Positions 1 through 3,000 of a stretch of DNA of 37,769 nt are shown here, one piece after another. How positions within the stretch are numbered: position 1 is the first letter of the stretch; the number at the start of each line of letters is the position of its first letter. This stretch comes from a virus. Lineage: Duplodnaviria; Heunggongvirae; Uroviricota; Caudoviricetes. Location: the IMG/VR virus record IMGVR_UViG_2675903324_000005, one strand, 5' to 3'. The position numbers were made by a program.

Positions 1-3000
1 TGTTGTGAGCTTCCGGATTGCGGGAGACGGGGTATGTACCAGATGGAAAAAATCACAACAGGTGTGTCATACACCACGTCAGCGGTGGGAACGGGCTACT
101 GGTTCCTGCAGTTGCTGGACAGGGTTTCCCCGTCTCAGTGGGCGGCAATAGGCGTGCTGGGGAGTCTGCTGTTTGGGCTGCTGACATATCTGACGAACCT
201 GTATTTCAAGATTAAAGAAGACCGTCGTAAGGCGGCACGGGGAGAGTAGGTGATGAACCATGAAGAAATGAATCAGCGCTTCAGTCGTCTGGAAAATGAA
301 ATTGCTGAACTGAATAAAAAACTGTCGGCGCTGATGCCTTCTGAAGATGCAAACAAACGCCGCGATGAGCAGTTTGCTGCGTTTGACGATTATTGTCGGA
401 AAGTGATGAGCAGAAATCTCGCAGAGTGTTTCAGTATTCATAATGATAATTGCAGTGAGCTGGAATGGGAGTGTAACCGGCCATCCTTTGTTGTATCCGG
501 TGATGACGGGAAAATCACCATATCAGAAAATGGAAAAGTAACACTGCCATCGCACCAGCACAGTGAGACGCTCATTGAATTTGCCATTGATTACCTGAAG
601 AACAATAAAAAACAGGGGCTGATGCAGCGCATTGGTCGTTGCATGGGGTATCTGCAGGTAGCCGCTGAGATTGAAGCGCTGGCCAGTGGTGCGGACAAGG
701 ATTCAGTTGTGCGGGAGGCACTTCTTCGTGATTTTGATAATCCGCCTTTTAAAAAAGTGCCGGCTTACTGGCTTCATCCCGGACTGACTTATCTGAAAGT
801 GCGTATTTAGTGGGCCTGGGACAGCGGCTGAATATTTAATATATCCATGAACACAAAAATCAAATACGGCCTGTCGGCTGCCGTTCTGGCGCTGATTGCC
901 GCAGGGGCTTCTGCGCCTGAAATCCTCGACCAGTTTCTGGATGAAAAGGAAGGTAACCACACCACGGCATACCGTGATGGTGCGGGTATCTGGACCATCT
1001 GCCGTGGAGCCACCCGGGTGGATGGTAAGCCTGTGATTCCTGGCATGAAGCTGTCGAAGGAAAAATGCGACCGGGTTAACGCTATCGAACGGGATAAGGC
1101 GCTGGCATGGGTGGAGAAAAACATCAAAGTGCCACTGACTGAACCCCAGAAAGCGGGTATTGCGTCATTCTGTCCTTACAACATTGGCCCGGGTAAGTGT
1201 TTCCCGTCGACGTTTTATAAACGAATTAATGCAGGAGATCGAAAAGGTGCCTGCGAAGCGATTCGCTGGTGGATTAAGGACGGTGGCAGGGACTGCCGTA
1301 TTCGCTCAAATAACTGTTATGGTCAGGTATCCCGTCGTGACCAGGAGAGCGCGCTGGCGTGCTGGGGAATCGACAGATAAGCAGAATATTTTGCTGATAA
1401 ATGACGCTTGCTCACGCGGGCAGATAACACGAAATCCTGCGAACTGGCAAAATGCAAGTGAATAAAGTCAGGAAGATTGTTTTACGCAGAGGCACCGTAA
1501 TGCTGTCTTTGTCATTTCTGCGCTTCGCACAAGCGTAAATAAACCAAAGAACCTTTCAGGATGAGCCCTAGTGGATAACCGGCAGTGGTCTGGTTAACCC
1601 TCTTTGGGCTGGTTATTCCTGTGCGCAGGGTTCATCACTAAAAGGAAATAACCGATGAATATGATGACCGTGCCGTTTCACGGCGATTCTCTTTATGTGG
1701 TTAACCATAATGGCGAACCGTATGTTCCAATGAAACCGATCGTTGAAGGGATGGGGCTGGACTGGAAAACTCAGTATCGCAAGTTAAAACAACGGTTTAA
1801 TAGCTGCATGGTCGAAATGACCATTCAGCTACCAGGTGATACCCAACGTCGCCCTGTTATCTGCCTGGCTTTACGTAAACTTGCTGGCTGGCTTCAGACT
1901 ATCAGCCCAAATAAGGTTAAGCTCAAAATCCGAGACAAGGTGATCCAGTATCAGGAAGAGTGCGACGATGTTCTCTATGAATACTGGACGAAGGGTTTTG
2001 TCGTTAATCCCCGTCGAATGAGTGTGATGGAAGAACTCAATCAGGCTTGCGCTGACATGAAACGGGATAAAAACATTGCCAGTGTGTTTGCTACCGGGCT
2101 GAATGAGTGGAAACAGGTTAAAGCCGCGCATGTATCAAAAATCCGCACATTGATAAACGAAGCGAATCTGCTGATTGATTTTGTCCTGGCTGATACAGGC
2201 AAAGGGAAAATAACAAAGGCGATTGATGGAGTGGTGGCTAATGATATCGGATAAACTCATAACGCTGGCGAAGATCCTCTGTGTAATCGTCGGCATTCCA
2301 TTTTTAGTCATGCTGGTTGCCATTTTCTTTTCCACCGCCTGGCGAGTCCTGACGTTATCGGGACTGGTGGGGTGAAAGAGAGATGAACCGTGTTCTGTGT
2401 GTGGTGATTATTGTCCTGCTGGTGGCCTGTGGTGCGCTTAGTCTGGGGCTGAATCATTACCGTGATAACGCCATCGCCTACAAAGAGCAGCGCGATAAAG
2501 CCACATCCATCATCGCAGATATGCAGAAGCGGCAACGTGATGTAGCAGAACTTGACGCCAGATACACAAAGGAGCTTGCTGATGCTAATGCGACTATCGA
2601 AAGTCTCCGTGCTGATGTTTCTGCTGGGCGTAAGCGCCTGCAAGTCGCCGCCACCTGTGCAAAGTCAACGACCGGAGCCAGCAGCATGGGCGATGGAGAA
2701 AGCCCAGGACTTACAGCAGATGCTGAACTCAATTATTACCGTCTCAGAAGTGGAATCGACAAGATAACCGCGCAGGTTAACTACCTGCAGGAATACATCA
2801 GGACGCAATGCCTGAAATAATTTTTTTGCAAATCACAAAGTCAATTTAATGAGCCTCGCGATGCGGGGCTTTTTTATGTCCGCAGTAAACGCGCTTCACA
2901 CGCGCGACTTATGAACACAGAACCTTTCAGGATGACCCTTGAGGATGCCGGTTTGGTGATCGGTGCCTTTCTGTGGGCCGGAATCCTGTGTGACAAGGTT

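Follow-up and report, generated by a model that had tools for sequence, protein, structure and literature searches.

We analysed a 37,769-nucleotide (nt) stretch of DNA from a tailed virus (Caudoviricetes; IMG/VR record IMGVR_UViG_2675903324_000005), referred to here as the window, and in it the gene at positions 253-810. This gene occupies what we call the slot, the interval between the genes for a phage-21-type (S21-type) holin and an endolysin of the signal-anchor-release (SAR) type. The slot gene is a genuine protein-coding gene of a 933W/P13374-like Shiga toxin (Stx)-type prophage. Sequence comparison identifies it as the C-terminal two thirds of the 287-330-amino-acid (aa) proteins of the YdfR family, apparently expressed without their DUF1327 domain, and of this identity and architecture as a DUF1327-less C-module we are very nearly certain. 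It is an optional addition to the lysis cassette, present in some phages and absent from others, and it appears to capture the Shine-Dalgarno (SD) sequence of the endolysin, which in occupied cassettes would be left without one. That the gene serves as a late accessory and not in defence is probable; that it is a non-essential, lysis-phase accessory factor acting in cis and/or in trans we put at even chances. The elements concerned, all on the plus strand, are listed below.

34-249, plus strand: holin gene (S), phage-21-type class II (pin)holin, 71 aa; Pfam PF04971 Phage_holin_2_1, 7e-33.
239-246, plus strand: Shine-Dalgarno sequence GGGGAGAG in the last holin codons; predicted to serve the slot gene here and the endolysin in empty-slot phages.
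253-810, plus strand: slot gene, 185 aa; C-module of the long YdfR family / PHROG 1085, without DUF1327.
259-429, plus strand: N-terminal helical hairpin / coiled-coil module (aa 3-59), acidic (isoelectric point (pI) 5.3), mosaic between alleles.
430-477, plus strand: variable acidic linker (aa 60-75), modelled with low confidence.
478-807, plus strand: conserved C-terminal domain (aa 76-185, about 110 aa), a three-stranded beta-meander plus four helices in the AlphaFold2 (AF2) model.
811-846, plus strand: spacer of 36 nt, an AU-rich endolysin leader without a Shine-Dalgarno sequence.
847-1380, plus strand: endolysin gene (R), SAR-type lysozyme, 177 aa; Pfam PF00959 Phage_lysozyme, 6e-25.

An earlier reading of the DNA made without database searches (the sequence-only reading) had placed an open reading frame (ORF) here that starts 1 to 4 nt past the holin stop and ends 36 nt before the endolysin, and the translations and the start chosen by RefSeq agree with it. 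The frame is open from GTG 250 (186 codons), an alternative start. ATG 253 is the start conserved among homologues and used in RefSeq, giving 185 aa up to the stop codon TAG at 808-810; it lies 3 nt past the holin stop, and 36 nt separate the slot-gene stop from the endolysin ATG at 847.

The median pairwise ratio of nonsynonymous to synonymous substitution rates (dN/dS) is 0.24 for 26 distinct alleles of the 185-aa form, which corresponds to purifying selection. By part it is 0.34 for the N-terminal region and 0.21 for the C-terminal domain of these 26 alleles. Since homologues at about 30% identity are also found in Salmonella prophages, the frame is more than a chance ORF. Homologues that are always pseudogenes, a possibility named in the sequence-only reading, are not what is seen: of 84 loci, 80 have an intact ORF and the other four (L045-47, L080) a frameshifted one. 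The identical protein is present on 379 public contigs, always labelled "hypothetical protein", and a DNA match to the slot gene occurs in 879 of 5426 complete E. coli genomes (about one in six).

The gene had been taken for an unknown orphan; it is instead a member of PHROG 1085 and a DUF1327-less version of the long YdfR form. The match to phrog_1085 (1e-110; PHROG function label: unknown) covers profile positions 117-296 of 296 only. It is partial because the long members of the family carry an additional N-terminal DUF1327 domain. Correspondingly, 98% of the query (residues 4-185) aligns at 80-87% identity to E. coli proteins of 287-296 aa, annotated as "DUF1327 domain-containing" or "YdfR family", which have the extra N-terminal DUF1327 (PF07041). 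PF07041 was not found in the window protein even at E values up to 1, and no second DUF1327 gene was found elsewhere in the window. In a Pfam search, the first member of alignment A3 matched 0 families and seven long homologues matched DUF1327 (up to 5.7e-45). The forms that consist of the C-module only are a diverse clade (185, 195 and 205-221 aa) and not one truncation; they differ by a linker insertion and by mosaic coiled-coil alleles.

The 21-kDa product is predicted to be soluble and cytoplasmic. As the sequence-only reading had it, there is no transmembrane segment and no signal peptide, nor any N-terminal hydrophobic segment in the window protein: the maximal Kyte-Doolittle mean over 19 residues is 0.76 (1.7 for the holin), the grand average of hydropathy is -0.60 and the pI is 5.8. 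The transmembrane domain, signal peptide or lipobox that marks holins, RI-type antiholins, releasin and spanins is absent. A structural model was built with AF2 from a 43-sequence alignment that includes Salmonella members (mean predicted local distance difference test score (pLDDT) 81); it replaced an earlier run on 13 close homologues, which was unusable (pLDDT 54). The coiled-coil-like N-terminus noticed earlier reappears in the model as helices 3-27 and 31-59, where the mean pLDDT of 10-residue blocks falls from 86 down to 48, and DNA matches between alleles are mosaic in this module. The linker is modelled as disordered, with pLDDT below 50 for residues 54-71, and is the position of the 28-36-aa insertions in the alignment of the 209-221-aa alleles. 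In the C-terminal domain, which is mildly basic (pI 8.75), block means lie between 75 and 97, with values above 90 for aa 91-170. Ten residues of this domain are invariant in the 43 sequences (G128, R129, L134, Q135, A137, P165, K167, W173, P176 and Y180); H103 and the NPPFK loop vary hardly at all across the family, and the motifs GR.MG.LQ.AAEIE and DNPPFK..P..W..PG..YLK.R of the long YdfR-family proteins are present.

The C-terminal domain has no Pfam model and appears to lack structural relatives. Pfam and NCBIfam searches of the 185-aa protein returned sub-threshold coiled-coil noise only, sequence searches of the PDB with the single sequence and with the 43-sequence profile returned nothing meaningful, and fold searches detected no structural relative. 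Among 1.84 billion representative proteins an exhaustive profile search gave only 40 matches, which indicates a narrow, lineage-specific family; the divergent members among them (26-41% identity) are mostly from Salmonella enterica prophages, and three divergent members lie on contigs too short for gene context. Two large repeat proteins, P0142 (SRCR-like) and P0148 (NACHT/HEAT-like), were rejected as spurious repeat matches. Among the species representatives of GTDB, the family was recovered only from Escherichia and Shigella, and a metagenome scan yielded close E. coli relatives only.

The sequence-only reading credited the gene with an SD of its own, GGAGAG. This site consists of the last holin codons, and it drives the endolysin in phages whose slot is empty. 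GGGGAGAG, upstream of ATG 253, pairs with the anti-SD at -8.1 kcal/mol. In empty-slot phages the identical SD stands 8 nt before the endolysin ATG, the endolysin starting 4 nt past the holin stop; it likewise precedes R in one such locus (L090, 1725-1775) and ydfR in another cassette (L091, 2070-2170). Upstream of the endolysin ATG 847 of the window, no anti-SD pairing was found within 20 nt (0 kcal/mol). The endolysin leader, ...ATATCCATG, is AU-rich, runs as ...ATATCC into the ATG and is conserved in other occupied cassettes. No unusual RNA fold was found in the 36-nt spacer (z = 0.3).

The comparison with related prophages proposed by the sequence-only reading showed the slot to be empty in the nearest phages and polymorphic among prophages. 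Four forms occur: empty, the N-domain (DUF1327) alone, the fusion of N-domain and C-module, and the C-module alone as in the window. For a census we counted slot forms in 71 prophage cassettes of IMG/VR whose holin shares 97% identity or more with that of the window. The slot was empty in 12, N-only in 33, fused in 16 and C-only in 10; an occupied slot (59/71) is the rule within this census. An endolysin directly after the holin, previously assumed to be the normal arrangement, is therefore found in 933W/P13374-type Stx phages and not in general. In most deposited Stx phages (933W, Sakai-type, P13374) the slot is empty and S and R are 4 nt apart, and the phages closest to the window overall, the P13374 family, belong to these. 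The first six codons of R (window 847-870), which encode its short cytoplasmic N-terminus, differ with occupancy (loci L177-L256): they read M[NS][AT]KI[KR]YG in all 59 occupied cassettes and M[SN]RK[LF]RYG in all 12 empty ones. In the set of 84 loci, mostly 3-4 nt lie between the stop of the S21-type holin and the gene and 36 or 42 nt between the gene and the lysozyme; the copies that deviate are frameshifted or sit at contig edges, or belong to a few loci where the gap on one or the other side is longer. Where the neighbours could be counted in 80 metagenome loci, the holin was upstream in 67 of 67 and the lysozyme downstream in 68 of 70.

Examples of the N-only form are YdfR of Qin and ORF47 of BP-4795 (114 aa). 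The 296-aa fusion (e.g. AUZ14059.1) is found in many genomes of commensal and extraintestinal pathogenic E. coli, and gp05 of Stx2-converting phage 86 (YP_794052.1) is a 268-aa fusion without the coiled coil. In phage 86, a reverse-oriented 104-aa ORF (gp06; L092, 2859-3173) lies between the 268-aa allele and the endolysin, and some 19 metagenome loci, in which the gap is 452 nt, were grouped with this arrangement; the orientation of gp06, opposite to the late operon, suggests a moron expressed in the lysogen. In NZ_CP030111.1 (L096, 2553-3443) an intact 296-aa ORF is labelled "YdfR family protein, incomplete, missing C-terminus" (pseudogene) by RefSeq and its Prokaryotic Genome Annotation Pipeline, which leaves the C-module part without annotation. 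In many complete genomes the feature under the match to window positions 116-558 is "none"; one locus, that of NZ_CP030111.1, was inspected.

Homologues of 253-303 aa in Salmonella lambdoid prophages (e.g. P0168, P0172) consist of a YdfR-like N-domain, a coiled coil and the C-domain. They come after Q and a HicAB pair and immediately before the genes for an HP1-type holin (PF16080), a SAR-like lysozyme and Rz, with terminator-like hairpins on both sides (L085, 2834-5987; L088, 3737-5960). On one metagenomic contig (L093) the homologue is two genes upstream of an S21-type holin. The link with the lysis cassette is conserved beyond Escherichia; the exact position is not. This conserved link fits a lysis-related role and equally fits the moron-prone 5' end of the late operon. 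Upstream of the Salmonella homologue are HicA/HicB and two ORFs (177 aa, and 95 aa with a coiled coil), and the database protein P0128 joins the N-terminus of the 177-aa ORF to the C-domain.

The remainder of the lysis cassette in the window comprises the following.

1655-2254: ant-like gene with P22_AR_N and ORF11CD3 domains, between endolysin and Rz.
2223-2375: small ORF of about 50 aa with a transmembrane segment, overlapping the ant-like gene.
2383-2820, plus strand: Rz i-spanin, end of the lysis cassette; Pfam PF03245, 3e-35.
about 2582-2767, plus strand: Rz1 lipoprotein frame inside Rz, with an LLGVSAC lipobox.
2851-2871, plus strand: terminator-like hairpin and T-run past Rz, the first such signal 3' of the holin.

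The holin has a Met1/Met4 dual start, ends at TAG 247-249 and is named "class II holin family protein" in RefSeq. The endolysin begins MNTKIKYG, is Gly/Ala-rich and SAR-like at its N-terminus and shows an E35/D44/T50 triad, as read from the translation. The ant-like gene and the small ORF form a second interruption of the cassette, preceded by a 274-nt non-coding gap (1381-1654); the same ant-like insert is present in Stx2 phage I, whose slot is empty. GC content is lower in the slot gene (0.435-0.50 for window 201-800) than in the holin (0.56) and the endolysin (0.52-0.56), and it is also low in the ant-like insert (0.44-0.475). The window starts inside the late region of a lambdoid Stx-type prophage, and its positions 1-25000 are closest to the P13374 family, the O104:H4-outbreak type of Stx2a phage (97.8% identity over 91%). 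Phages of this family are short-tailed and 933W-like; stx genes, if present, would sit upstream of the window start, and a single 2807-aa ORF (25400-33823, plus strand) lies among the virion genes. The RefSeq orthologue of the slot gene, WP_001385817.1 ("hypothetical protein"), is found in a Stx2c prophage with the gene order stx2AB, SASA-family esterase, holin, slot gene, lysozyme, ant-like gene, Rz.

Neither a sigma-70-like promoter nor a terminator was found from the start of the holin gene to the end of Rz. A consensus scan of the plus strand from 1 to 3000 gave no sigma-70-like promoter, weak or alternative promoters being beyond such a scan. In a related prophage a strong terminator-like hairpin lies directly upstream of the holin. 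From the absence of internal promoters and terminators we infer co-transcription of the slot gene with the lysis genes in the late operon, and its translation would be coupled to that of the holin. Of the co-transcribed late moron suggested by the sequence-only reading, the optional and probably late-transcribed insert holds, and the promoter and terminator of its own that would mark a moron are missing from the window.

On the reading that we favour, transcription of the slot gene would be confined to the late operon that it shares with S, R and Rz, and translation would start from the strong SD at the 3' end of the holin gene, probably to a holin-like protein level. Two non-exclusive routes are proposed for its action. 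In cis, the endolysin would be stripped of the holin-embedded SD and of its coupling to S, and the ratio of SAR endolysin to holin would be altered. In trans, the coiled coil would oligomerise and the C-terminal domain would bind a cytoplasmic partner and so tune lysis timing, the partner being perhaps the pinholin, through its basic C-tail, or the SAR endolysin, through its short basic N-terminus. A role in lysis timing is compatible with the data, and any specific lysis-tuning mechanism is put forward tentatively, as somewhat doubtful. In the most far-reaching version the C-terminal domain would be a new fold-level family, a soluble cytoplasmic regulator of pinholin/SAR-endolysin lysis that together with SD capture sets lysis time, and with it burst size and the timing of Stx release, across a large share of E. 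coli prophages. This we consider quite unlikely. The regulator might recognise the short basic N-terminus of the SAR endolysin, as a "soluble releasin or anti-releasin", or might instead bind S21 at its basic C-tail.

Several points weigh against a role in lysis. Pfam, NCBIfam, PHROG annotation, PDB sequence and fold searches link the C-terminal domain to no lysis protein, and the confident match to a known lysis accessory protein that the sequence-only reading had considered did not appear in profile or structure searches. The cassette tolerates an unrelated ant-like gene between R and Rz, so that position is weak evidence for a lysis role, and the Salmonella gene stands between terminator-like hairpins like an independent moron. 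That the R N-terminus covaries with slot occupancy was rejected as proof of an interaction, because the indel boundary lies within R codons 1-6 and linkage can explain it. Functional phages with an empty slot exist, which limits any effect to a modulatory one. What experimental data there are on the family come from the other domain, in K-12 YdfR, and point to RNase E and RNA, that is to RNA metabolism and not to lysis (PMC13232886).

These last data are the starting point of one alternative, a module for RNA metabolism or host takeover, which seems to us rather unlikely. Its ancestor would be the two-domain protein, in which DUF1327 attaches both to the catalytic half of RNase E and to RNA; the C-domain and coiled coil would contribute a second activity, directed at late mRNA, another degradosome component or the ribosome, and would stabilise or reprogramme the late transcript shortly before lysis. 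The Rosetta-stone argument speaks for it, with the C-module fused to DUF1327 in hundreds of E. coli proteins and to a related N-domain in Salmonella, as does the mildly basic character of the C-domain. K-12 YdfR binds Rne(1-597) in bacterial two-hybrid and pull-down assays and co-purifies with DNase-resistant nucleic acid; it was also found in an envelope-integrity screen (PMC13232886). The RNase E and RNA binding reported for YdfR maps to its residues 1-72 (PMC13232886) and is not transferable to the window protein, which lacks the RNase E-binding domain and has no DUF1327 gene elsewhere in the window to accompany it. Overproduction of YdfR changed few transcripts, a small effect on the transcriptome (PMC13232886), the C-domain is unlike any RNA-binding fold, and N-only and C-only forms persist independently, which argues that neither half depends on the other.

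The presence/absence polymorphism, heavy allele mosaicism, slightly reduced GC content and narrow, lineage-specific distribution (40 representatives among 1.84 billion proteins), together with the Salmonella homologues that are flanked by terminator-like hairpins and adjoin the HicAB moron, would also suit a moron that benefits the lysogen through defence, superinfection exclusion or anti-defence, with low expression in the prophage state or early expression. We judge this improbable. The defence or anti-defence role entertained in the sequence-only reading gains nothing from PADLOC, which gave no match (best E 0.018-0.045 for four family members, coiled-coil segments only), from the promoter scan, in which no promoter for expression in the lysogen appeared, or from the domain searches, in which no enzymatic or sensor domain was found. 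The consensus scan showed no promoter-like site upstream of or inside the holin, and read-through from any promoter further upstream would express the holin too; late-only expression would come too late for classical anti-defence, and the lack of a transmembrane segment or signal peptide argues against blocking of receptor or entry. A third explanation denies the protein any function: the gene would be a decaying remnant of long YdfR, kept as a spacer between S and R with an effect in cis alone. N-only, C-only and fused forms do share the slot as though any filler sufficed, R lacks an SD whichever allele is present, and a few copies are frameshifted (L045-47, L080). Against this stand the dN/dS of 0.24, with a still smaller value for the C-domain, and ten residues that stay unchanged between E. 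coli and Salmonella proteins of about 30% identity; the C-only forms make up a diverse clade of 185-221-aa proteins and not a single truncation, and AF2 predicts a compact, confident domain. The selection data largely refute the functionless spacer, which we hold to be highly improbable.

What is already known of the slot gene is that it encodes a hypothetical protein and a member of PHROG 1085, and that YdfR-family genes are annotated in the slot; it is not a new kind of element. In the literature searched (ydfR, DUF1327, lysis cassettes of Stx phages) neither the C-module nor the slot gene as such is the subject of a paper. The modular N/C structure, the widespread DUF1327-less form, the C-domain family without structural relatives and the SD capture are, as far as shown by these searches, apparently undescribed. 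The lysis cassette controls lysis timing in Stx phages and hence the release of toxin and progeny. If the late lysis-linked reading is true, a trans effect would give the pinholin/SAR-endolysin pathway a cytoplasmic lysis regulator of a new kind, and in cis the stripping of the ribosome-binding site from the endolysin would be new for this pathway as well; either would help to explain strain-to-strain differences in Stx release. If the C-module acts together with the RNase E-binding domain of YdfR, it would imply phage control of host RNA decay late in infection. In any case the C-terminal domain is a well-delimited, uncharacterised family absent from Pfam, for which empty, N-only, C-only and fused slots provide a natural allele set. 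Of practical relevance, the NCBI pipeline labels intact 296-aa alleles as truncated YdfR pseudogenes.

Among known systems, the long YdfR family (268-330 aa) is closest: it occupies the same slot, 4 nt past an S21-type holin and upstream of a SAR lysozyme, and shares the invariant C-domain motifs with the window protein. The window protein differs in lacking DUF1327 and in its coiled-coil segment, which is a different allele. The DUF1327-only proteins of 103-114 aa, K-12 Qin YdfR (P76160) and BP-4795 ORF47, have the same slot, the SD at the holin 3' end and an SD-less endolysin leader; they have no sequence in common with the window protein, being the other half of the fusion. The Salmonella homologues share the C-domain (about 31-46% identity), with the same invariant residues, and a late-region location near holin, lysozyme and Rz, but they stand upstream of an HP1-type holin and not between holin and endolysin. 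T4 RIII and P1 LydB are small cytoplasmic or cytoplasm-facing lysis regulators. Like these two and the Mu releasin gp25 (DUF2730), which are small, non-enzymatic, encoded with the lysis genes and target holins or SAR endolysins from the cytoplasmic side, the window protein may work from the cytoplasm. Releasin, which is exposed to the cytoplasm, controls a SAR endolysin via the basic cytoplasmic N-terminus of that enzyme, and dependence on releasin is set by basic residues in this short segment (PMC9239132). The same segment of the endolysin differs between occupied and empty cassettes. Releasin has an N-terminal transmembrane domain and the window protein has none, and the two share no sequence, profile or fold similarity, so that the precedent is an analogy only and not a matter of membership. 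Lambdoid morons, a concept of Hendrix and Juhala, include bor, lom and stx. Like them, the window gene is optional between near-identical phages and deviates slightly in base composition; it differs from them in having no promoter or terminator of its own and in being, to judge from its start signals, wired translationally into the lysis cassette.

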